From contig JAJYHY010000119.1 of NCBI GenBank assembly GCA_021784555.1, positions 1 through 21,993 of the forward strand: 21,993 nt of DNA, read 5' to 3'. The notes beneath the pieces are model-generated. The model was given only the letters and a program-made list of their open reading frames with translations, made no database searches and was not told where the DNA came from. Positions 2,120-13,278 of the stretch are shown in pieces (position 1 is the first letter of the stretch; every line of letters begins with the position of its first letter). Origin of the DNA: a bacterium (lineage in GTDB: Bacteria > Verrucomicrobiota > Verrucomicrobiia > Limisphaerales > UBA8199). Made by a program: the position numbers and the translations under genes.

Positions 2120-2560
2120 ATGGCCCGTAGCCGCACCTGTCGCGCTTTGGCCAATCGCACCCGGCTCCGCCTGTTCGGATTGCTCGTGCATTAGCCAGAT
2201 CAAACCGTCAGCGCGCTGGCTCGACACTTGAACCTGACGGAGGCGATCGCCAGCCAATACCTTCGCACCTTGGAGGCGCGGGGATTGCTTGCCGTTCGGC
2301 GAACGGGTCGCTGGGTGAAATATCGCCCCGGCGAGGCGCGAGACTCCAACGTGGCAAATCTGGTCGCGGCGATGATTGACACTTTCCGTAGGGAAGCCAA
2401 TCCCGTCGAGACCATCTTCAAGGTGGCCACCGCGTTTACCACCGCGTTTACCCATCCGCGACGGATTGAACTCTTTCGCTTGTTGAACCAGCGACCATGC
2501 GGAAAGGCACAATTGCGCGCTGCGGCGCGCGCAGGCTCATGCGCCCGGCGATGGCATTGA
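2120..2560 (+). pseudogene. Decayed paralog of the tandem winged-HTH ArsR/SmtB-like regulator (copy 1); in-frame TAG at 2192-2194 and divergent C-terminus
   Basis: ATG at 2120 gives MARSRTCRALANRTRLRLFGLLVH*PDQTVSALARHLNLTEAIASQYLRTLEARGLLAVRRTGRWVKYRP...FTHPRRIELFRLLNQRP..., collinear with copy 2 at 9282-9839; TAG aligns with a Gln codon of copy 2. Confidence 0.55.
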
Positions 2561-2992: not shown

Positions 2993-3159
2993 GCAGCCTG
3001 CATTATGCGGCAGGGAACAGGGATCTGATCTCTCAGAGGAGGAGGGCGGCTGGAGGCAAGCATAGACGATTGCGAAAAGAATGCGGCGGATTACTGCGGA
3101 TAGCTGCGGGCCACCGCGGCTTACTGGGGATCTCAAGGGCAAAGGCGGGGAAGGGAAGG

Positions 3160-3460: not shown

Positions 3461-4098
3461 ACTGGCGGTGGCCCACGCTCAGCGCGATTCTCCATGCGCG
3501 AATTCTCCGAAAGAGCTTGCAGGTCGAATCGCAACGGGTCGAGACCGGGTTGGTTCAGGTCAGCCTGATCACCGCGGCGAGATCAACCTTTCCTCGAGGT
3601 TCACCGTGCAAGCTCGCTGGCAAGGCACCCGCTTCATGGCAGGCGACGCTTTGGGCGGATTCAACCTGGCGGAGGCGGCCGCTTCCTCCGCCCGCTTTGA
3701 GACCGCCAAGGCGTGCCGCATCCCAGTCGGCAAAAGGCTCGCCATCGGCCGGCTCCGCTTGAGCAGAGGTCGCGAGGTGCAACTTGAATTGGAACAACGT
3801 GCAGTGAGGTGAGGTAGGTCGATTGGCTTCTGGCGCAATGCCTGGACGGTGGGCCAGGGACAGTGACAAAGGCGCAGTTTGACTCGTTCTTCAGGGCAAT
3901 CGCTTGCCAACCGGTTGGCCGCCGGCTAATGTTTAGTCACGGAAACAACCAGTGACGTTGCCGCCTTCGACCGTGGACTTCGTCCGCTCCTGCGCCTTAT
4001 TTTGCTCGGCAAGGCACAGGAGGTGCTGAGCTTTCGCCCTCCGGCGGCGCTGGAAGGTCGTATCGAGTATCTGGCAGAGAAGTCCACCGAAGGCCAAC

Positions 4099-4281
4099 TC
4101 ACTGCAACACCTGGCGGCCCGCCGCAGCCACCAAGCCATTAATCTCCTTGAGCGTGGCCTCATCCACCAGGCTGACGTTGTCGCGCAGGGGGCGGTGGTT
4201 GAATCGCTGGGCCGTCGCGCCCCAGGCGTCCGCCGACACCCCCAGCACGTTTTGCAGCGCGTCTTTTCGCTTTTTCCTCAA
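4099..4281 (-). CDS. Small hypothetical protein (60 aa), TTG start, divergent from the Uma2 gene
   Basis: ORF with plausible -35/-10 (TTGGGC-N16-TAATTT) upstream on the minus strand; no recognised domain. Confidence 0.3.
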   Translation of the reverse strand: MRKKRKDALQNVLGVSADAWGATAQRFNHRPLRDNVSLVDEATLKEINGLVAAAGRQVLQ

Positions 4282-4404
4282 TTTGGGAAAATTAGGCGAG
4301 GATCAGGGATGCCCAATGCTTATTGACAAATGACATTGCGCGGGACGTGGGCGGACCGCGGTCCTTAGCTTGCCGGCAAGGGCCTGCGCGGGTATTCTCC
4401 CTCT

Positions 4405-4962
4405 ATGGCATCCGTGCTTGAAACGGCGGGCTCAATCGACTTCGATGACCAGACGGCATTCAACCTGGCGGTGTGGGAGAAGGTGCTGGCCGATCCTTTT
4501 TTGGCCGGCGTACCTTATCGCGTCGAGACGGACCGCTACGGACAAATCGTCATGACACCCCCACCCGCCCCCGAACATGGAGAGGAACAATTTGGAATCG
4601 GCGAGCTCCTGCATCAACTCCTGCCCGGCGGTCATGTGATCACGGAGTGTCCCGTATCTACGCGCGAAGGGGTGAAGGGCGTGGACGTGGTCTGGATGTC
4701 GAAGGCGCGCCGTCAGGCACAAAGGAGGAAGAAATGCTTCACCAAGGCGCCGGAGATCTGCGTGGAGGTCATCTCCCCCGGCAATACACCGCGTGAATTG
4801 CGGGAGAAAAAGGCGCTTTATTTTGAGGCCGGAGCTAAGGAAGTCTGGTTCTGCCACGGTGATGGACGGATGGAGTTTTTCTTAAGGGCGGCTCCGAAGA
4901 AACCGGGGGTCTCCATCCTCTGTCCCCGTTTCCCGGAGCGGATTCAAATCGACCGGGCGTAG
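4405..4962 (+). CDS. Uma2-family (DUF820) putative restriction-endonuclease-like protein
   Basis: 185 aa; motifs ...VDVVW...KAPEICVEVISPGN...REL.EKKALYFEAGAKEVWF match the PD-(D/E)xK-like core of Uma2/DUF820 proteins. Confidence 0.8.
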   Translation: MASVLETAGSIDFDDQTAFNLAVWEKVLADPFLAGVPYRVETDRYGQIVMTPPPAPEHGEEQFGIGELLHQLLPGGHVITECPVSTREGVKGVDVVWMSKARRQAQRRKKCFTKAPEICVEVISPGNTPRELREKKALYFEAGAKEVWFCHGDGRMEFFLRAAPKKPGVSILCPRFPERIQIDRA

Positions 4963-5032
4963 CAGGGCTTGAGAGGAGTGCCTGGCTGCGGTTTCGCTGC
5001 CCCGCCTCTCTCTCAGCCACAATTTTTTGCCA

Positions 5033-5146
5033 CCATTTTTTTGCCGTAGTCCTTTTTGGGTCTGGTTTTGCCAAGTTAGGATTTCGGGTTTGCCAGGTCC
5101 GGGGGTACTGGCGGGTCCCGTGCGCCATTTTTGGCCGTGTCCTTCC
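5033..5146. repeat. Iteron-like array of TTTTGCC(A/G) direct repeats with A/T tracts upstream of the HTH gene
   Basis: ttttgcca 5036, ttttgccg 5050, ttttgcca 5077, gtttgcca 5098, ttttggccg 5138; spacings 14/27/21/40 bp (about multiples of 7). Confidence 0.45.
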
Positions 5147-5184
5147 TTCTTGCAAAGCGAGGCCCGCTCTTCCAAAGTGGCCCC

Positions 5185-5685
5185 ATGCAATCACACGAGA
5201 TCCTCCGGGAAGTCTTTCAGCAATGCAGCCCCAAGCAGGTGGCGGCCGAGATGGGCCTCTCCCTTTCGATGATCTATAAGTGGGCCGAGCCGCCTGACCC
5301 TCAGGCCGGCAGCGGCAGCACCAACCCGCTGGATCGCGTCGAGGCGCTCCTGCAATGCACCAACGACAAACGATTGGTGCAATGGATATGCGAGCGGGCG
5401 GGCGGCTTTTTCATCCTGAACCCGAAGATGAACCACGCCCACCCGGATTATCTCATCCCAGCCACAAACGAGATCGTGCAGGAGTTCGCCGATTTGCTGG
5501 CGGTGATTGCCAGCGCCGCGGCCGACAACCAGATCACGGAAAAAGAGGCCGAGCAAATCCGCCGCCGATGGGAGGAACTCAAATCGGTTACCGAGACTTT
5601 CGTTGCCTGTTCAGAACTGGGCAACTTCCGCGTCCTCAAAGAAAATCCCCCCGGCGTGAGCCGGGGAGCAACCCGCTCGGCATAG
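5185..5685 (+). CDS. Helix-turn-helix DNA-binding protein, phage CII/CP76-like regulator fold (hypothetical)
   Basis: MQSHEILREVFQQCSPKQVAAEMGLSLSMIYKWAEP is a classic HTH; ORF track start is 5131, but ATG at 5185 sits downstream of the repeat array. Confidence 0.55.
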   Translation: MQSHEILREVFQQCSPKQVAAEMGLSLSMIYKWAEPPDPQAGSGSTNPLDRVEALLQCTNDKRLVQWICERAGGFFILNPKMNHAHPDYLIPATNEIVQEFADLLAVIASAAADNQITEKEAEQIRRRWEELKSVTETFVACSELGNFRVLKENPPGVSRGATRSA

Positions 5686-5695
5686 GCCCAGGCGA

Positions 5696-6715
5696 TTAAG
5701 AACCCTGGCCGGCGTTGAGTTGTACCAGCCAAATATTGCGGTACCGCACTGGGTTGCCATGGTCCTGGAGCTGCAGCGGACCCGTGGCGGTGTTCTTCGG
5801 CTTCTTACCAGGTTCGTAGATGGCGGTCGCGCCCAGAATCGGGCTGTTGTCCTGAATCGTGATGCCATTGAACTTCACGGTGACGCGGGCCTTCTCCCGG
5901 ACCGAGCCGTCCGAGTTCATCCGCGGGGCGTGGAAGGTGATGTCGTAAGTCTGCCAATGCTCGGGAGGCAGGCTGGCGTTGACCAGCGGGCGCCTCTGGT
6001 TGTAGATGGCGCCGCAGTCGCCCATGGATGGCACCAAACCAAAGGAATCGAGCACCTGGATCTCATACATGCCGTTTAGAAACACACCGCTGTTAGCCCG
6101 TTCCTGGCCGAAACGATCCTCCCTCAGCGGCAACCAGAACTCCAGGTGCAACCGGATGTCGCCGAACCTTTGCTTGGTCGTGATCGAACCTTTACCGGGG
6201 ACACATTGCAGGCTGCCGTCGGGCAGGGGCTTCCACGGCCCGCCATTCCAGGCCGAGGTGTCGGGCGGCGTGCCGGGTGTAAAGGGCAGCAGCACCACGG
6301 CGCCGTCTGGCGGCGGGGCGCCTTCGGTGGGCGAAGTGCGCGTCGTTTTCCTCAACGTCAGGCTGACGCCGTAGTAGCCGGGGTCCGCCTGCAACCGGTC
6401 GCCGGAGATCGCGCCATGCCACATATTGGCGTTGGCCCGTCCGAACAGATTAACCCGCCTCCCTTGCCGCACGCCATAGATCACGAATTGCGCGGTTGGC
6501 TGGCCGGACACGAGCGGCTCAGCCTGGATTACCACGCGGTAATAGCCTGGCCCCTCCGGGATAACGTCGGCCGTAGCCTTGGTCGTATGCGACCTGTCGG
6601 CCTGGTAGGTGCCCTGATATTCGCCCATGAAAGGCTCCTGGGCGCGGACCGGTTCAAGCAGTGCCGTCAAACCGGCGGCAATGAATACGCACTTCAGCAG
6701 ATGTGACGTCATCAT
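5696..6715 (-). CDS. DUF1080 (PF06439, 3-keto-disaccharide hydrolase) domain protein with signal peptide
   Basis: N-terminal signal peptide; WKPLPDG...GDIRLHLEF...NSGVFLNGMYEIQVLDS...GAIYNQRRP...EHWQTYDITF...LQLQDHGNPVRYRNIWL matches the DUF1080 concanavalin-like fold signature. Confidence 0.85.
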   Translation of the reverse strand: MMTSHLLKCVFIAAGLTALLEPVRAQEPFMGEYQGTYQADRSHTTKATADVIPEGPGYYRVVIQAEPLVSGQPTAQFVIYGVRQGRRVNLFGRANANMWHGAISGDRLQADPGYYGVSLTLRKTTRTSPTEGAPPPDGAVVLLPFTPGTPPDTSAWNGGPWKPLPDGSLQCVPGKGSITTKQRFGDIRLHLEFWLPLREDRFGQERANSGVFLNGMYEIQVLDSFGLVPSMGDCGAIYNQRRPLVNASLPPEHWQTYDITFHAPRMNSDGSVREKARVTVKFNGITIQDNSPILGATAIYEPGKKPKNTATGPLQLQDHGNPVRYRNIWLVQLNAGQGS

Positions 6716-6938
6716 AGATATTCTTCTGTCTCAATTCTGTCTCAATGTTCCTGAAAACCCAAATTACGCCGGCCGGCCCTCCGGGCGCAAGGCAAGAACG
6801 CTTCCACTGTAGCAGCGCCTCGCTCAACCGCGGCGCTCTCACGAGACGCCGCTCCAGCCAGCGCGGAGCCACGGCCAGTGACAAGATCGTGGCGCCGATT
6901 ACCTGCATCCGGGCAACGGGTCCGTGCCTCCTCGATGC

Positions 6939-7736
6939 TCATGCACCCGTCCCAGAGGGGTTTCGGGGCTTGTGTGAGGTATGCTCGCTGAGATACTGAT
7001 TAAAGCTCTTGGCCAGGGTAACGAAGTCCGATGGCACCATCAGCACGGTCGTGCTGTTGTTTTCCGCCCCCACTTCGGTCACCATCTGCATGCGGCGCAA
7101 TTCCACCGCCACCGGGTTGTTGGCCATTTGCTCGGCGGCGTCTCCCAGCTTCTTGGATGCCTCCAGTTCCGCCTCAGCTTTGATGATGCGCGCCCGCTTT
7201 TCCCGAATGGCCTCCGCCTGCATGGCCATGACCTGTTGCATGGCCTCCGGCAACTCCACGTCCTTCATCTCGAAGCGCTCGACCACAATGCCCCAGGCGG
7301 TTGTGACGTCGGCGATGCTGCCCCGCAGCAGGTCGTTAATCTTGTCGCGCTCCTGCAACACCTCGTCCAGGTCATGCTGGCCGATGATGTTGCGCAGGCT
7401 GGTCAGCGCCAGTTGGTAAACCGCTGCCGCGGAGTCCTTCACGGCAATTATCGATTTGTCCGCTTGCGTGATGTGGTACCAGAGCACGGCATTGACGCGG
7501 ATTGTGACGCTGTCCCGCGTGATGGTCTCCTGCTGTTCGGCGGACACGGTGCGGGTGCGAATATCAATAGTTCTGGAGCGCTCCACGCCCAGGGGGATGA
7601 TCCAGTATAAGCCGGGGCCGCGCAGGCCGGCATAACGCCCCAACCGGAAGACAACGCCACGCTCATATTCCTGGGCGACGCGAAGGCCGGAGAGTAAAAC
7701 CACGACGACGATTCCAGAGATGACCAAGGTTAGCAT
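6939..7736 (-). CDS. SPFH/band-7 (stomatin/slipin-like) membrane protein
   Basis: N-terminal TM helix, then VVFRLGRY...GPGLYWIIP...R..IDIRTRT...ITRDSVTIRVNAVLWY and a coiled-coil C-terminal region typical of the SPFH domain. Confidence 0.9.
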   Translation of the reverse strand: MLTLVISGIVVVVLLSGLRVAQEYERGVVFRLGRYAGLRGPGLYWIIPLGVERSRTIDIRTRTVSAEQQETITRDSVTIRVNAVLWYHITQADKSIIAVKDSAAAVYQLALTSLRNIIGQHDLDEVLQERDKINDLLRGSIADVTTAWGIVVERFEMKDVELPEAMQQVMAMQAEAIREKRARIIKAEAELEASKKLGDAAEQMANNPVAVELRRMQMVTEVGAENNSTTVLMVPSDFVTLAKSFNQYLSEHTSHKPRNPSGTGA

Positions 7737-7836
7737 GGGCTATGCAGTATGCCAAAAAATTAACAGCGGAGCCGCGCCAAAAGCGCCGGCTCGGACCCAT
7801 GATGGCCCTCACATCGTTTTTCTCAACCAAAAAGCG

Positions 7837-8862
7837 TCAGAACGGAACCAGGCAGCCCCGCTCCACCGATTCCTGGGCTTTCAAACACATCCGCACCGAC
7901 CACAGCCCGTCCTCGCCGGTGGCGGCGAGTTTTGCGTTTCCGGACACCGCTTCGGCCACCATGGCAATCTCGTCCGCCAGTTCATACACCTCGCCGGTAA
8001 TTTTCCTCAGCGGGACATCGGTGTGCTTTTCCCCATCGAAATACTTCAGCGAGAATGTGGGATGAAACGTCCGGTCCATCGCCCCGCTCCAACTGGCCCA
8101 GAGGGCGCCGCGCGTGCCAGTGACCTTGGCGACCTGGTGGTGTTCGAACCCGCTCAGCGTTTGCGAAATGACCGCATAAGCGTCCTTGGGGAAATTGACA
8201 ATCGCGCTGAAGTTGTCCTGCAGCTCCGGGTGATCGGGCCGGCGCGCGTTGGCTCGGGCGAAAATGCTCTCGGGCGCTCCCAAACCCGAGAAGTACCACC
8301 GGGCCAGGTCGAAGAAATGTATCGGCTCTTCGAGAATCCAGTTGCCAACCCGCCGGATGTCGTAGCGCCAGCCTTCGCCGCCCGTACGATAGGGATTGCG
8401 CCACAACTCGATGAGCGTGTATTGCGGTTGTCCGATGGCCCCGGCGTCGATCATCTCCTTGACCTTGCCCCAGAGCGAAGAGAGGCGAAATTCGTGGCCG
8501 ATGGCCAGCAGACGGCCCTGTTGCCGCGCGAGGCGGATAAGCTCTTCACAGTCGCTGACCGAAAGGGCCATCGGCTTTTCCAGGAGCAGGTGCTTGCCCG
8601 CGCGCAACACGTCCGCGCCAACCGGGAAATGCAGGTCGGTCGGCAGGACCACGTCCACCACCTCAATATCCGTCCGCGCCAGCAACTCACGGTAATCCGC
8701 CAGCACTGAGGCGTCCGGATGCAGGCGGTGGGACTCGGCCTGATTGGCTGGCGAGCGCACAGCGATCGCGGACAATTCAGCCTGGGCGCACTCGGCAATC
8801 GCGCGCGCGTGATGCCGGCCCCAAGCCCCAAAACCGATGACGCCAAAGCGAACCTTTTTCAT
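7837..8862 (-). CDS. Gfo/Idh/MocA-family NAD(P)-dependent oxidoreductase
   Basis: N-terminal Rossmann motif RFGVIGFGAWGRHHARA, EKPMALS catalytic region, 341 aa; family signature throughout. Confidence 0.9.
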   Translation of the reverse strand: MKKVRFGVIGFGAWGRHHARAIAECAQAELSAIAVRSPANQAESHRLHPDASVLADYRELLARTDIEVVDVVLPTDLHFPVGADVLRAGKHLLLEKPMALSVSDCEELIRLARQQGRLLAIGHEFRLSSLWGKVKEMIDAGAIGQPQYTLIELWRNPYRTGGEGWRYDIRRVGNWILEEPIHFFDLARWYFSGLGAPESIFARANARRPDHPELQDNFSAIVNFPKDAYAVISQTLSGFEHHQVAKVTGTRGALWASWSGAMDRTFHPTFSLKYFDGEKHTDVPLRKITGEVYELADEIAMVAEAVSGNAKLAATGEDGLWSVRMCLKAQESVERGCLVPF

Positions 8863-9253
8863 GATTGATGTGTGGCGGCCGGTCCCAAATCAAAACAACC
8901 GGCATGGTTACATGGGCAAGCGGGATGACGGAGTGCTGGAGTGTTGGGTCTTTCGTCACTCCACCGCTCCGTCCCGAGTGCCCCAATGTTCCGTGCTTCG
9001 GTTTAGTTCGATCGCAGGCCAATTGCAAGCATGGTTGCAAATAGGTCTGATCCTGGCATACGGCCCCTTTGTCCCGCGCTTTTCGCGTACTTTATCCTCG
9101 GCTCTTGGTCGGGAAGCAAAGGGACAAAATGCCCGATAAAGTATGAGATACCCGGCCCGATAAAGCGGGCCTGGGTCGAGATGAATCGCCACGGCCATTG
9201 ACAAAGTCCGCCCCCGCGAACAGCGCCACTTGGCCCCGAGAGCAGCTTGACTC

Positions 9254-9285
9254 GCATGAGCACACCTTGCAAGGTGTGCTCATGC
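9254..9285. promoter_or_regulatory. Perfect 32-bp palindrome GCATGAGCACACCTTGCAAGGTGTGCTCATGC overlapping the ATG of the ArsR-like gene; putative autoregulatory operator
   Basis: Verified self-reverse-complementary by hand; TTGACA/TTGACT -35-like hexamers at ~9200 and ~9249 just upstream; ATG at 9282 lies inside the palindrome. Confidence 0.5.
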
Positions 9286-9839
9286 AACCCGCCCGCCCCG
9301 CTTCAGCCAACCCTCTGGCGCACCGGCCGCGCCTTCGCCACCGCCTTGGGCTCTTCGCTTCGCCGGCGCAGCAACCCGGCCAAACCGTCGGTGCCCTCGC
9401 CCAGTGCGTGCAGGTGCCGCCCGCGCTCGCCAGCCAATATCTGCGTCGGCTCGAAGCGCGGGGATTGCTGAGCGCTGAGCGAGTCGGACGCTGGGTCAAG
9501 TACCGCCCCAGTGAGGCGCCGAACTCCTCAAACTCGAGCGGTTTGGCGGCGGCACTGGCGGCGTCGTTCCGAGGCGAAGCCGGCCCCGTGGAGACCCTCT
9601 TTAAGTTGGCCACCGCCTTCACCCATCCGCGGCGGATTGAACTCCTTGGCCTGCTGCACCGGCGGCCGCACTGAGTGGCCGAGTTGCGAGCGGTGACCAA
9701 AATGTCTTCTCAGGCGTTATCACGTCATCTGCGCAAGCTGGAGAGCCGTGGGTTCATTGCGCGAGCGGCGCAAGGGTATGCCGCGGTCGAGACGTCCACG
9801 GAGGTTGGGCGAGAGATGGCGCGGTTGGCGGTGCGGTAG
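9282..9839 (+). CDS. Tandem winged-HTH ArsR/SmtB-family-like regulator (two HTH units), interrupted by an in-frame TGA at 9672-9674 (possible pseudogene or readthrough)
   Basis: HTH1: LRHRLGLFASP...TVGALAQCVQVPPALASQYLRRLEARGLLSAERVGRWVKYRP. HTH2: FTHPRRIELLGLLHRRPH*VAELRAVTKMSSQALSRHLRKLESRGFIARAAQGYAAVE. Frame stays open through TGA to TAG at 9837-9839 (186 codons); copy 1 has GGA (Gly) one codon from the aligned TGA position. Confidence 0.55.
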
Positions 9840-9845
9840 CCGGGA

Positions 9846-9881
9846 GGGTTTGAGCACACCTTGCAAGGTGTGCTCAAACCC
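9846..9881. promoter_or_regulatory. Perfect 36-bp palindrome GGGTTTGAGCACACCTTGCAAGGTGTGCTCAAACCC immediately 3' of the ArsR-like gene; shares the 24-bp core with the upstream palindrome
   Basis: Hand-verified; core GAGCACACCTTGCAAGGTGTGCTC identical to 9258-9281; as RNA would form a ~16-bp hairpin; a TTTT tract follows 7 nt downstream. Confidence 0.5.
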
Positions 9882-10082
9882 GTTTTGGCTCTGGAGACCC
9901 CAGTTGCCCTAAAATATCCAAACTCCAGCGGAGGTCGCGCGGCGACGACCCTGCCCCATTGAGCTGCTGAACGGGTTACGTCGGCGACGCAGGTTCGGCG
10001 ACCAAATGCCACTAACATTTGGCCACGTGAGTCATTGCGAGGACCGGGTATGCCTGTGTGCCGGAGGCACCTTCGAGAATAG

Positions 10083-10102
10083 CCCAACGTCTTGACGTTG
10101 GG
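10083..10102. promoter_or_regulatory. Perfect 20-bp palindrome CCCAACGTC-TT-GACGTTGGG upstream of the beta-propeller/NagB operon
   Basis: Hand-verified inverted repeat; lies ~160-200 bp upstream of the 10258/10282 start. Confidence 0.35.
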
Positions 10103-10257
10103 TGGGCGCACGGAATGGACCAAGTCCAGACAGGGACGGCCGAAGCCCTGACCAAGACCTCTGCTCACAGCCGCTTCAGCCGTCCCTAACGGGACTTATG
10201 GCTTTTCATCAGATGAATCGCCGCATAGTACCAGGCATGGTTTGACACGGCGCAAAA

Positions 10258-11283
10258 GTGCGGCGTACTCTCACACGGCTAATGAACTTAACTACTGACG
10301 CGGTTTCGGAAGCATTTGCCCGAAGTGAGACCCTTCGGCAACCGGTCGGCGCGGGGCCTGGATATTGGGCGGGCGCGCCGGGGGCTTTCTACGAGGAAAG
10401 CGAGCGCGCGTGGTATCTTACCTACCGGATTCGGCGTCCACGCGGTGTCGCGCCGGACCGGGGCGGGGAGGCGCGAATCGCGCGCTCAACCGATTTGAGG
10501 ATTTGGGAGGATATTTGGTCGGTTACGAAGGACAAGTTTGGCACGGCCTCCATCGAGCGTTGCGCCCTCCGTCGCGGGCCTGATGACCAATGGCGCTACT
10601 TTGTGAGCTATGTCGATCCGGCCGACGGGCGTTGGTGCGTGTCGGTTCTCAGGGCGGCGGAGGTACGGAGGCTCGATGCGGCGCGAGCAACACCGGTCTT
10701 CAAAGCGGCGCCGCTCGGATTGGAAGGCGTCAAGGACCCTTGGATTCTTGAACACCAGGGGAGCCTTTACATGTTCCTCAGTGTCGCCTTGCCCACTTCC
10801 CAAACCACCGCTCAGTCCCACAGCACCTTGGACATCTTTAATACTGGCGAATGTGTCTCGGCCACGGGCTTGGCCACCTCTGGAGATCTGGACGAGTGGC
10901 ATTGGCAAGGAATCGTCTTCAAGCCGGAGGCGAGCGGCTGGGACCGCTATTGCCGTCGCATCGACAGCGTCCTTCCGGAGCAGGGGCAGTTCCTTGCCTT
11001 TTACGACGGGAGCGCCAGCCACGCTGAGAACTACGAAGAAAAGACCGGGCTGGCGGTCTCCGCGGATTTGCGTCAATGGCACACCCTTGCCCCAGACACT
11101 CCGAAGTTCACCAGCAAGGACGGTTCCGGCTGCCTGCGCTACGTGGAGGCGCAAGTTCGGGAGGGTCACGCGCACCTGTTCTTTGAAGTCGCCCGCCCTG
11201 ACGGCGCGCACGAACTGCGCCTGGCTACGCTGCCCGTGAGTTTGCCGGAGGCACGAAAAGCGGGCGAGACCGCCCCAACCTGA
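10258..11283 (+). CDS. 5-bladed beta-propeller glycosidase/phosphorylase-like protein (GH43/GH32/GH130 superfamily-like), hypothetical
   Basis: 341 aa ORF (GTG at 10258; first ATG 10282); repeated WxxxG/DG-rich blade-like segments (DPWILEHQGSLYMF, GLAVSADLRQWH); stop 1 nt before the next gene's ATG. Confidence 0.65.
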   Translation: MRRTLTRLMNLTTDAVSEAFARSETLRQPVGAGPGYWAGAPGAFYEESERAWYLTYRIRRPRGVAPDRGGEARIARSTDLRIWEDIWSVTKDKFGTASIERCALRRGPDDQWRYFVSYVDPADGRWCVSVLRAAEVRRLDAARATPVFKAAPLGLEGVKDPWILEHQGSLYMFLSVALPTSQTTAQSHSTLDIFNTGECVSATGLATSGDLDEWHWQGIVFKPEASGWDRYCRRIDSVLPEQGQFLAFYDGSASHAENYEEKTGLAVSADLRQWHTLAPDTPKFTSKDGSGCLRYVEAQVREGHAHLFFEVARPDGAHELRLATLPVSLPEARKAGETAPT

Positions 11284-11284
11284 C

Positions 11285-12127
11285 ATGTTCCCTCCCTACC
11301 TCGCTATCCCTGCCGCTGAGCTTGGCAAAGGCACGCCGGTAAAGGTCCGCATTGTTGGCGACATGCCATCGCTGGGCCGCGACCTGGCGGATGTCCTCAA
11401 GCAGGAAATCGTAACCGCCAACCGGGAGGGACGCGGCGGCACTTTCATCATTCCGATCGGGCCGGTCGATCAGTATCCCCTCCTGGCGCAAGAGTTGAAC
11501 GAGGAGAAAATCTCCTGCCGTGACGTGGTTTTTATTGGCATGGATGAGTACTTGGATGAGCGCGGCGCCTGGCTGCCGGAGAATCACCCGCTCAGCTTCC
11601 GTGGCCACCTGAACCGGATGTTTTACAGCGTGCTGGAGCCGGCGCTGGCGCCTCCGCCGGAGCACCGAATCTTTCCCGACCCGCATTCGCTCTCCACACT
11701 CCCGAAGCTCATCGCCGAGCGGGGCGGCGTCGATGCTTGTTTCGGCGGCATCGGCATAACCGGTCATCTCGCGTTCAATGAACCGCCGGAGTCAGGTGAC
11801 AAGATGGTGTCGCTGGAGTCCTTTGCGGCGCGGCAAACGCGCGTCCTGGCGCTGAGCCGTGAAACCCGCACTATCAACTCCGTGACCGTCGGCGGGGAGA
11901 TCGCCATTATCCCACAACTCGCCGTTACCGTTGGCATGAAGGAAATTCTGGGGGCCCGGCGCCTGCGCCTCTATTGCAACCGCCCATGGCAAAGCGCCGT
12001 GGTGCGGCGCGCCCTGCACGGTCCCATTAGTCCAGCCTGTCCCGCCTCGCTCATCCGTACGCACGCGGACGCCGTGCTGACTGTGGCCGACTATGTCGCT
12101 GCGCCGCCGGACATCAGGTTGCGATAG
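11285..12127 (+). CDS. Glucosamine-6-phosphate deaminase/isomerase (NagB)-family protein
   Basis: VVFIGMDEY...GGIGITGHLAFNEP matches the NagB/6-phosphogluconolactonase family core (MDEY and GHIAFNEP motifs). Confidence 0.8.
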   Translation: MFPPYLAIPAAELGKGTPVKVRIVGDMPSLGRDLADVLKQEIVTANREGRGGTFIIPIGPVDQYPLLAQELNEEKISCRDVVFIGMDEYLDERGAWLPENHPLSFRGHLNRMFYSVLEPALAPPPEHRIFPDPHSLSTLPKLIAERGGVDACFGGIGITGHLAFNEPPESGDKMVSLESFAARQTRVLALSRETRTINSVTVGGEIAIIPQLAVTVGMKEILGARRLRLYCNRPWQSAVVRRALHGPISPACPASLIRTHADAVLTVADYVAAPPDIRLR

Positions 12128-12278
12128 GCCATGACGTGAAGGGCATGAAGGCCAAAATGTCTTTGTCACGGTGGTCGCCGAGGCGTAAGCTTTTGACATG
12201 AGCGCAACAGTGGAAACACCTGCCGCTGATTTGGGACAGATAATAGTGCGCACTCCGGGGGTTCTGCAAGCGCAAGCC

Positions 12279-13109
12279 TTAAGATTTACTGAGGTCGCGC
12301 AGGAACGCCCACATGGCCTTGAGGTTGCGCGTAGGATAGCGGGCGGTGAAACGCTTGAGCGCGAAGGGCGAGGCGCCCGGCGGGTTTATCCCGGCCGCCG
12401 TCGTACAGGCGCTACGGTAACCGGCCTCGGCAACCAGGTCGCTTACGCGCTGATCCCAGTCGCCATAAGGGTAGCAAAAATGCTCGACCGGAAAGCCGAA
12501 CTTATCCTCAAGGGCCTTCTTGCTCGCGACAATCTCCTCCCGGGCCGCGTCCTCGGAAAGGCGGGTCAGCCAGGGATGGGTTCGAGTGTGGGAGCCGATC
12601 TGCTGTCCAGCAGCCAACCACTCGCGTACCCGGACCTCATCCATGAGGGGCTGGGACACGTCTCCGACCCGTTGCTGCCAGAGATTGGTCTTGCCAAGAA
12701 GGTCTGAGACCAGGAACTGGATGCCGAAGAAATGGTGCTGCGTGAGCACCGGCAAAGCGTGTTCAAATACATCGCGGAATCCATCGTCGAACGTGAGAAA
12801 GACGCTAGGATTGGCATCAGCGGAGCGGGTAAAGATGCTGTCCAGGGGAGGAGCTAAAAAACCGGCGCCCGCCAGTTCCGCCATTTGGGCTGCGAAGAGC
12901 TTTGGGTGGAGATAAAGTCCCTTTAGGCGCGGACGGCTTGGCCGCGGCCCCACATGATGATAAGCGAGAATCGGCCGGCCCCGTGTGAACACCTCACGAA
13001 AAGGAGCGAGCCGGCTATAGTAGCGAGGCAGAGGCGGAGCAGGCTTCAGTGTCCATCCAGGAGATGTCACCAACTCAGTCATGCCTGGACTGTGCCAGCG
13101 GCAGTGCAA
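12279..13109 (-). CDS. Polysaccharide deacetylase (NodB-homology, CE4) family protein
   Basis: LTFDDGFRDVFEHALP (TFDDG motif), conserved His-containing motifs (GSHTRTHPWL), C-terminal HFCYPYGDW; alternative start MTELV at 13082. Confidence 0.85.
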   Translation of the reverse strand: MHCRWHSPGMTELVTSPGWTLKPAPPLPRYYSRLAPFREVFTRGRPILAYHHVGPRPSRPRLKGLYLHPKLFAAQMAELAGAGFLAPPLDSIFTRSADANPSVFLTFDDGFRDVFEHALPVLTQHHFFGIQFLVSDLLGKTNLWQQRVGDVSQPLMDEVRVREWLAAGQQIGSHTRTHPWLTRLSEDAAREEIVASKKALEDKFGFPVEHFCYPYGDWDQRVSDLVAEAGYRSACTTAAGINPPGASPFALKRFTARYPTRNLKAMWAFLRDLSKS

Positions 13110-13180
13110 ACGTCAATGCTCAACGTGATTGGGGCCCTTTTTGCAACGGGTCAGGTCAAGCTGCCAGACGCACGCAATAG

Positions 13181-13244
13181 GAGCGCGGACGCCCTCGTCC
13201 GCGTCGCTGGAAAGCCGCAGTCGCGGACGGGGGCGTCCGCGCTC
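13181..13244. promoter_or_regulatory. Two adjacent hairpin/operator-like palindromes CGCGGACG-N4-CGTCCGCG (13183-13203 and 13222-13241) inside a 14-bp outer inverted repeat GAGCGCGGACGCCC/GGGCGTCCGCGCTC
   Basis: Sits in the divergent intergenic region between the deacetylase (-) and the B12-riboswitch operon (+); centre-to-centre spacing ~40 bp. Confidence 0.4.
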
Positions 13245-13278
13245 TTATCACCAACCTGAGCAGTTACCCATTTTTTTG

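Follow-up and report, generated by a model that had tools for sequence, protein, structure and literature searches.

Matching long palindromes before and after a tandem ArsR/SmtB-domain regulator gene in Verrucomicrobiota, a proposed operator pair

Autorepressors of the ArsR/SmtB family, such as SmtB, CzrA, CadC and NolR, are homodimers of subunits of about 100–120 amino acids and have 12-2-12 inverted-repeat operators. The locus described here lies on a contig of a verrucomicrobial genome (JAJYHY010000119.1 of assembly GCA_021784555.1; Limisphaerales, UBA8199). The whole stretch analysed, 21,993 nucleotides of forward strand, is called the window. Within it, two long perfect palindromes bracket the remains of a gene whose intact relatives encode two ArsR/SmtB domains in one chain. 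The palindromes are probably the cognate DNA-binding sites, an operator pair, of the protein encoded between them, as judged from comparative sequence anatomy.

This locus resembles the ArsR/SmtB repressors in that both halves of the protein have the full ArsR/SmtB fold and in that a dyad of about 26 bp with a free central dinucleotide appears, from its sequence anatomy, to overlap the gene's own promoter. Unlike those repressors, the two domains form one chain instead of a homodimer of single-domain subunits. The consensus has no canonical metal-site motifs, and no resistance operon is adjacent. In every module the proposed operator recurs past the stop codon, and extra copies are found elsewhere, including in coding regions. 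The double-domain chain, the invariable site-gene-site module, the probable dyad-built leaderless promoter and the dispersed, deeply conserved solo sites are new and set this system apart from known ArsR systems. A literature search returned nothing relevant on the family, the motif, tandem ArsR proteins, or palindromes and leaderless starts in Verrucomicrobia.

Three other groups of described systems share parts of this arrangement. In SarS, SarU and SarY of Staphylococcus aureus, a single chain consists of two homologous winged-helix halves and so mimics a dimer. These proteins have the same chain organisation as the present family and differ from it in belonging to a SarA/MarR-like subfamily in a different phylum; we know of no gene-bracketing operator pair for them. 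In the case of lambda CI, OL and OR flank cI, so that operators bracket the repressor gene, and LacI (O1, O2 and O3) and GalR (OE and OI) also have several operators. Common to these and the present locus are at least two identical or similar dyads hundreds of base pairs apart, one on a promoter and the others without promoter function. The protein family is unrelated, looping would have to be supposed here, and the copies are spaced 594–628 bp apart without obvious helical phasing. Finally, ParB-parS, Noc-NBS and MatP-matS have few, highly conserved palindromic sites that occur regardless of gene function, including within coding sequences. As in those systems, one site is tied to the gene of the binding protein. 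Unlike in those systems, there is no ParB-type domain and there are no partner genes, and the upstream copy has a clear promoter-operator anatomy.

The palindrome pair and the site-gene-site module

The two palindromes of the window (Table 1) share a 26-bp unit (TGAGCACACCTTGCAAGGTGTGCTCA) at 9257–9282 and 9851–9876. The initial annotation, which was made from the letters of the window, had described a 24-bp core that occurs twice. This 24-mer does have exactly two matches in the window, even when three mismatches are permitted; the unit that is actually common to both palindromes is 2 bp longer. The 24-mer is matched in none of 100 shuffled sequences. A generalised motif with up to three mismatches finds the same two sites and no further one, and the runner-up perfect palindromes in the 22 kb are 14 bp long. 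Chance origin of the pair is excluded, in agreement with the earlier remark that chance seldom yields perfect palindromes of this length.

The start codon (ATG, 9282–9284) sits within the right arm of the upstream palindrome. The stop codon (TAG, 9837–9839) is followed by 6 nt and then by the downstream palindrome. A TTTT tract stands 1 nt past the 36-bp palindrome and 7 nt past the 24-bp core. A search of Rfam 15 placed no curated family on the palindrome, which is touched only by chance-level microRNA models.

Table 1. Positions of the features of the module and of the second gene copy in the window
Feature	Positions	Strand	Remarks
-35-like hexamer TTGACT	9247–9252	+	17 bp before CAAGGT
Upstream palindrome, perfect, 32 bp, GCATGAGCACACCTTGCAAGGTGTGCTCATGC	9254–9285	.	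Proposed auto-operator over promoter and start codon; sequence read; equivalent in all 15 modules
-10-like hexamer CAAGGT	9270–9275	+	Inner right half of palindrome, ends 6 nt before ATG; proposed from conserved spacing
Pseudogene of tandem ArsR/SmtB-domain regulator	9282–9839	+	+1 frameshift at about 9288–9300, frame back at about 9336–9342; Cys lost
Segment for conserved N-terminal motif PPAPLQPTLWRTGRAFA	9289–9339	+	Frame 1, out of frame with the rest; tblastn; profile hidden Markov model (HMM) positions 5–20
In-frame TGA	9672–9674	+	Homologs carry Thr or Arg
Downstream palindrome, perfect, 36 bp, GGGTTTGAGCACACCTTGCAAGGTGTGCTCAAACCC	9846–9881	.	Proposed auxiliary 3'-end binding site, hairpin-capable; sequence read; equivalent in all modules
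TTTT tract	9883–9886	+	Terminator-like in the window only; tract not conserved elsewhere
Second copy, same gene family	2132–2545	+	More decayed, without palindromes

Related loci were collected by two routes. In the first, a metagenome collection was scanned for the 18-mer CACACCTTGCAAGGTGTG, which gave 87 stretches. Several of these carry two copies about 595–630 bp apart around a homolog of 30–42% identity (L005/L051, L030/L080, L038, L088 and L090). In L047, which has a divergent homolog, copies are present at the gene start, at the gene end and in the inter-domain linker. The second route was blind to the DNA pattern and used the loci of homologs P0044, P0069, P0038, P0023, P0115, P0066, P0071 and P0004. 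In all of these loci, a dyad stands just before the start and again 1–45 nt past the stop. Together the routes gave 15 distinct modules, found either by protein similarity (L092–L096, L098–L100 and L104) or by DNA pattern (L005, L030, L038, L047, L088 and L090).

All 15 modules are bracketed by two copies of a dyad. Within a locus the copies match and between lineages the sequence differs; the two copies thus co-vary. The protein-retrieved loci contain dyads unlike that of the window, for example CATACTTTGCAAAGTATG, CATACTTTG/CAAAGTATG, ATCACACTTC-NN-GAAGTGTGAT and GAGCACACTTC-NN-GAAGTGTGCTC. The spacing of the copies stays within the range given above, except in L047, where it is 723 bp. The general form of the site is CAYAC-N8-GTRTG with lineage-specific arms. 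Its shoulders are constant and 8 nt apart, and the central 2 bp vary (GC, GG, GA or TA). Variable central positions between fixed shoulders fit an ArsR-type 12-2-12 operator. The closest relative with an examined locus, L104 (52% identity), shares its outer arms (TGAGCAC...GTGCTCA) and the placement of the ATG in the arm with the window and has a different centre. The position of the module is syntenic between related species (L005 with L090, L095 with L100), and its neighbours differ between lineages.

Besides L047, two modules have additional palindromes. In L099, a third dyad copy (TGGTCACACTTTG/CAAAGTGTGATGA; 2927–2953) is found 144 bp upstream of the promoter-embedded copy. In L030, the module is also flanked on each side by a pair of another palindrome (GGGCGAGCTTSSAAGCTCGCCC; 3034–3106 and 3865–3936) that resembles repetitive extragenic palindromic (REP) elements.

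Upstream and downstream copies

The upstream copy of the window reads TTGACT, 17 bp, CAAGGT, GTGCTC and ATG. Of 14 upstream copies, 9 have a -35-like TTGAC in the gene's direction, 15–18 bp before a hexamer (CAAGGT, CAAAGT or GAAAGT) beginning at the dyad centre; with L104 the count is 10 of 15. At this spacing TTGAC is absent from all 14 upstream copies in the antisense direction and from all 14 downstream copies in either direction, and it is present in 1 of the 44 solo copies described below; the background is 0.39%. In the TTGAC-bearing modules, the start codon lies 12–15 nt from the dyad centre and 6–8 nt after the hexamer. We infer a leaderless or nearly leaderless mRNA whose promoter would be covered by the dyad. 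This anatomy suggests classical negative autoregulation, in which protein on the upstream dyad would block RNA polymerase. The upstream copy had initially been annotated as a possible autoregulatory operator of an ArsR-like protein. That proposal gains support from the family match of the protein (NF033788, see below), from the same anatomy in 15/15 loci and from the fixed spacing of TTGACN in 10/15.

The downstream copy stands at the same 1–45 nt after the stop codon in the modules and has no -35 in either direction. The next gene is often convergent (L005/L090, L092, L093 and L099). With convergent next genes and no promoter elements, the downstream copy is not in general the operator of the next operon, one of the functions that had been considered for it. 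An antisense promoter arising from the downstream copy was rejected on the same lack of a -35. We infer that the downstream copy belongs to the module and not to the neighbouring gene, as a predicted auxiliary binding site. It could support cooperative binding that loops about 600 bp, or it could act as a roadblock or insulator at the 3' end. Once transcribed, it would form a very stable 3' hairpin.

This hairpin is central to a different explanation, in which the palindromes act at the RNA level. The downstream copy would then be an intrinsic terminator or a 3' hairpin that stabilises the mRNA, and the upstream copy would terminate or insulate transcription from upstream. In the window, the downstream copy followed by GTTTTGG is indeed called terminator-like, with a stem of 16 pairs, the tail GTTTTGGCTC and a predicted fold of -45.7 kcal/mol (z -5.7). 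The orthologous solo sites L059 and L081 follow stop codons and have T-runs, and T-runs are enriched about 3-fold next to copies (23% vs 8%). However, only 3 of 15 module copies are followed by a T-run (background 8%), the downstream copy of 11 of 14 modules has no T-tract after it, and the upstream copy has no T-tract on either strand. Self-complementarity that continues through the would-be loop and conservation of the apex sequence are superfluous for a terminator. If the promoter is placed as described above, the upstream copy is also mostly upstream of the start site. An explanation purely by RNA hairpins is highly unlikely. A conserved intrinsic terminator finds little support, since most modules lack the T-run; as for the strong terminator of the initial annotation, the downstream copy of the window, where the T-tract is seen, fits such a terminator weakly, and the tract does not extend to the other modules.

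Sequence-specific recognition of double-stranded DNA by the encoded protein is favoured because the upstream copy has a fixed promoter register, the copies match in 15 modules, the geometry is 12-2-12 and the protein is of ArsR type. In addition, the inner dyad is conserved in sequence and not only in pairing.

The two-domain protein and its decayed genes in the window

Intact members of the family are single chains of about 187 amino acids with two domains. Both halves match the ArsR/SmtB model NCBIfam NF033788 above its curated cut-off, and matches to Pfam (MarR_2, HTH_5 and HTH_20) are weaker. Searches of the flanked gene against Pfam and NCBIfam return winged-helix families only, with no transposase, nuclease or Y1 (HUH) domain. 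An AlphaFold2 model of P0002, built with 78 sequences, has a predicted local distance difference test score (pLDDT) of 92.8 and a predicted template-modelling score (pTM) of 0.87. It contains two complete alpha1-alpha2-alpha3-alphaR-beta-beta-alpha5 units joined by about four residues. Each domain superposes at about 2.1–2.6 Å on SmtB, CzrA, HlyU, NolR or AntR. No solved chain in the PDB matches the whole protein, and all PDB relatives found are single-domain. The protein had been thought of as an ArsR-like dimer; it is instead a single chain with two ArsR domains and not a conventional dimer subunit.

An exhaustive profile search (E <= 1e-30) gave 342 clusters at 50% identity. Named members are assigned to Verrucomicrobia or Chthoniobacterales, and the family is mostly from Verrucomicrobiota. 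Across the modules, the recognition helix of the second domain (A-L-x-R-H-L-x-K-L) is nearly invariant and that of the first domain varies. This parallels the invariant inner site and the variable arms of the dyad, which is suggestive. Inspection of the consensus of 78 members for a metal or inducer site found no CXC in alpha3 and no cluster of His, Asp or Glu in alpha5. The consensus contains one near-invariant Cys (RTCR) and one His (FTHPRR).

In L047 (718–1458), the third palindrome copy of the divergent member lies inside the gene and is translated as NPTPCKVWD in the inter-domain linker. Each domain-coding half of this gene is therefore flanked by a dyad, which may reflect the way in which the tandem gene originated.

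The gene between the palindromes of the window, which the initial annotation had described as a regulator gene, is a pseudogene. No open reading frame (ORF) spans 9282 to 9839, and a TGA interrupts the frame (Table 1). Intact homologs start with MQP..PLQPTLWRTCRALANRTRLRLF. In the window, the conserved N-terminal motif is encoded in a frame other than that of the remaining gene, with 82% identity to residues 3–19 of P0002 (tblastn). The difference in frame indicates a +1 frameshift in the C/G-rich run that follows the ATG directly, and near 9336–9342 another shift brings the frame back. The gene no longer encodes the near-invariant Cys and a part of the first helix. The public annotation of this gene is a fragment of 130 amino acids only, and this "protein" is to be regarded as a pseudogene fragment. 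Assembly error is an unlikely source of the lesions because the sequence recurs in another public assembly record (L097) with 100% identity across 9010 bp, although both records may derive from the same reads. Recoding of the TGA at 9672, for example as selenocysteine, was rejected in view of the two frameshifts and because other genes in the window are translated normally under translation table 11.

The second copy of the gene in the window has a TAG at 2192–2194. Homology ends after about 2545 and the 3' part is lost. The copy also contains a 12-bp tandem duplication (ACCGCGTTTACC twice, 2429–2452). A comparison of its flanks for degenerate palindromes had been suggested, and none was found with a motif scan (up to three mismatches) and a palindrome scan of the window. 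Two decayed copies within 7 kb indicate that the family is or was multi-copy in the source genome.

Copies away from the gene and the role of the system

The site also occurs away from the gene. In a Limisphaerales metagenome-assembled genome (MAG), a 20-mer is found on two contigs with no family homolog nearby. The metagenomes contain 63 unique solo copies, of which 44 have a palindrome of at least 24 bp. The other matches (about 19) have shorter palindromes and were left out of inference, as chance 18-mer matches are possible among them; about 15 are expected in about 10^12 bases, a rough estimate of the size of the collection. The outer arms of the solo copies are of the types ATACTGT/ACAGTAT, GAAAC/GTTTC, AATCC/GGATT, TTTTCT/AGAAAA, AGAGA/TCTCT and GAATTC. 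With the exception of GAATTC, each type is also found as the arms of a module of that lineage or sample. In one metagenome, a single arm type is represented at about 7 or more distinct loci. The presence of the same lineage-specific arms at a handful of other loci per genome indicates that the protein probably has a small, dispersed set of sites.

Some solo copies lie in coding sequence. In L076 (10683–10700) and L052 (2912–2929), the dyad is in frame in the 3' part of prmA (FSHTLQGVRK), at a position kept in two related organisms. An ispH gene with a fused HNH domain lies 140 nt downstream of this dyad. In L055 and L015, orthologs that are 34% identical (E = 6e-111) have the dyad at the same aligned position in different frames (THLARCV vs SHTLQGV), each with the arms of its own lineage. 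A shared position in different frames at this identity indicates a constraint on the DNA element that is stronger than, and different from, that on the host protein. The dyad is evidently old at this position, and its arms appear to change in concert with other copies in the genome. The retention of such copies at orthologous sites within coding regions suggests that the system may have roles beyond autoregulation.

Remnants of the gene were searched for beside the solo copies with HMMs, and none was found (E < 0.01). An origin of the solo copies like that of solo long terminal repeats was rejected on this result. In viral contigs, the window-type 18-mer has no match, and a variant type has three matches. 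These are bare 18-mers without arms or regulator and are at chance level.

These results bear on the earlier suggestion that the palindromes are the terminal inverted repeats of a small mobile cassette. Such a cassette would move by transposition or through recombination of its flanking repeats with solo copies. The repeats, being palindromic, are at once direct and inverted, a second decayed copy of the gene lies 7 kb away, module neighbours vary between lineages, and the solo copies could be footprints or targets. Against this, the immediate flanks (ACTCGCA and AACCCG) contain no target-site duplication, and no recombinase, transposase or integrase is among the genes called in window positions 4195–13204, with no recombinase or transposase among those of related loci. 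The syntenic position of the module, the lack of gene remnants beside solo copies, the viral contigs and the second gene copy without palindromes also speak against mobility. A cassette is most improbable.

The solo copies also raise the question of whether the core is a generic repeat. It does occur independently of the gene, twice in the Limisphaerales MAG and as 44 long copies in the metagenomes; these copies are sparse, have arms that match those of modules and lack REP hallmarks. In a fuller version of this explanation, the palindromes are a REP-like selfish or structural family with an associated gene, as REPs have in REP-associated tyrosine transposases (RAYTs), and act through DNA or RNA hairpins; the gene would not be an autoregulator. 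As with REP and RAYT, a dispersed palindrome family is associated with a single-copy gene flanked by palindrome copies. Solo copies are at many unrelated loci, often just past stops and sometimes in frame in coding regions. About 110 nt of flanking sequence are common to copies in some lineages (L008/L045, 86% identity), and individual palindromes, at 32, 36 and up to 42 bp, outgrow the family unit. The sites of the window are perfect next to a dead gene, and other REP-like families are present in the same genomes. Unlike in REP/RAYT systems, the flanked gene encodes a DNA-binding-type protein with ArsR-type domains only and no catalytic domain, instead of a Y1 transposase. The site tables contain no conserved GTAG/CGTC tag. 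Copy density is low: no copy beyond the module pair is found in the 22-kb window (up to three mismatches) or in five related loci of about 14–20 kb. The inner core sequence is kept across proteins of about 30% identity and at the orthologous position in 34% identical proteins, unlike fast-evolving REPs, and the upstream copy is in fixed register to the -35 and the start codon. A REP-like origin is unlikely.

In another explanation, the sites belong to a chromosome-organising or bridging system like ParB-parS, Noc-NBS or MatP-matS, and autoregulation is a mere side effect. The sites are near-perfect and very long for operators, lie beside unrelated housekeeping genes and within coding regions, and are deeply conserved in position and sequence. 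A site pair brackets the gene, and a chain with two DNA-binding domains might in principle bind two duplexes. However, no partner ATPase or CTPase and no partition genes are next to the modules, and ArsR-family proteins are typically simple repressors. Bridging as the primary function is distinctly unlikely. A broader version, in which the protein and its sites form an undescribed system, widespread in Verrucomicrobiota, that organises, bridges or insulates DNA or acts as a roadblock terminator, has a modest probability. In its logic such a system would resemble ParB-parS, Noc or MatP more than a metal-sensing repressor.

Several observations weigh against the palindromes being an operator pair of the encoded protein. 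The dyads are unusually long and perfect for operators, and in the window both are perfect beside a dead gene. Perfect sites at a decayed gene point to recent loss of the gene or to upkeep by an intact paralog elsewhere in the genome. Beyond the 26-bp unit, the two palindromes extend by 3 and 5 bp, and these extensions differ in sequence. Such extensions could be a sign that the hairpin as such is of importance, or that the palindromes are perfected by a template-switch process. The recognition helices of the two domains differ, which is awkward with a perfect dyad unless a symmetric dimer binds or both domains read the same half-site. Site likeness does not simply follow protein likeness, as proteins of 30–36% identity share the window 18-mer and the relative of 52% identity has another centre.

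The promoter and the solo copies contribute further points of this kind. The -10-like hexamer is weak, with 2/6 positions in the window (A2 and T6 only) and 3/6 in relatives, and for this reason a strict sigma-70 consensus scan calls no promoter. TTGAC is absent from 5 of the 15 modules, which are more distant (L005, L090, L038, L047 and L088), and a GGAG ribosome-binding site after the dyad in L088 means that a leaderless start is not universal. The genes beside solo copies have no common function. They include those for an M16 peptidase, DUF2293, gltB, ispH, manC and an Exo_endo_phos protein, as well as thiF, DUF255, iPGM, a KamA-like protein, ruvC, a URO-D-like (hemE-like) protein and prmA. 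Many solo copies are in short tandem intergenic gaps, 7–60 nt past a stop codon. By position, 12 are tandem, 3 divergent and 1 convergent, and 10 are 5'-only, a class inflated by contig ends. The solo copies have no promoter elements and some are within coding sequence, unlike a classical regulon.

If the palindromes are an operator pair, a DNA site and a promoter logic would be defined for a wholly uncharacterised regulator family of about 340 clusters at 50% identity, in a phylum, Verrucomicrobiota, with almost no experimentally known transcription-factor sites. The family would then be directly testable, as the protein, the two sites per locus and the predicted leaderless start are all specified. 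For annotation, long perfect palindromes in these genomes are not necessarily terminators.

Other repeats were observed in the loci with solo copies. In L008 (2100–2220) and L045 (3869–3940), which are one contig, solo copies share a left flank of about 110 nt with 86% identity, and in this lineage the repeated unit can apparently exceed the palindrome. In L010 (12283–12410), a unit of about 75 nt is tandemly duplicated upstream of gltB. The first unit has the usual dyad. The second has, in the same place, another 28-bp palindrome (TTTCTCACACATTA/TAATGTGTGAGAAA) with the same CACAC/GTGTG shoulders and a different centre, which may point to paralogous classes of site. Lineages whose arms are GAAAC or GAATTC (L020, L025, L034, L044, L053, L054, L073, L084 and others) are rich in a separate repeat, TTCCAA-N3-TTGGAA, which is absent from the window. 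Near gene starts this repeat is often arrayed with a period of 32 bp, and it appears as pseudo-peptides such as FQGLEK or FSKAWK in spurious ORFs. In two Nostocoides genomes (Actinomycetota), the central 20 nt of a 38–50-bp perfect palindrome equal the window core (L002 6838–6887, L003 3249–3286). This is probably coincidence, with no family homolog within 8 kb and about 0.5 chance matches expected in 596 Gb.

Four further features were noted in the window. A 17-nt motif (GCCACGGCCAKTGACAA) occurs three times (9188–9204, 6868–6884 and 3853–3869) with 88–100% identity. The one at 9188, which is 50 bp upstream of the module, includes a perfect TTGACA; the motif may be a promoter element of another sigma factor or due to chance. 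The downstream palindrome is separated from the next gene by 400 bp; within this gap, a match to the Acido-Lenti-1 small RNA (RF01687; 10057–10102, minus strand) covers the full model length with E = 0.007 and is sub-threshold, at 24.1 bits vs a gathering score of 37. An inverted repeat at 13177–13248 has 27-nt arms that are 93% complementary and an 18-nt loop, and its sequence is unrelated to the palindrome pair. Upstream of the neighbourhood, genes with Uma2 (PF05685) and Phage_CP76 (PF06892) domains are located at 4405–4962 and 5185–5685, according to the gene calls of L097.

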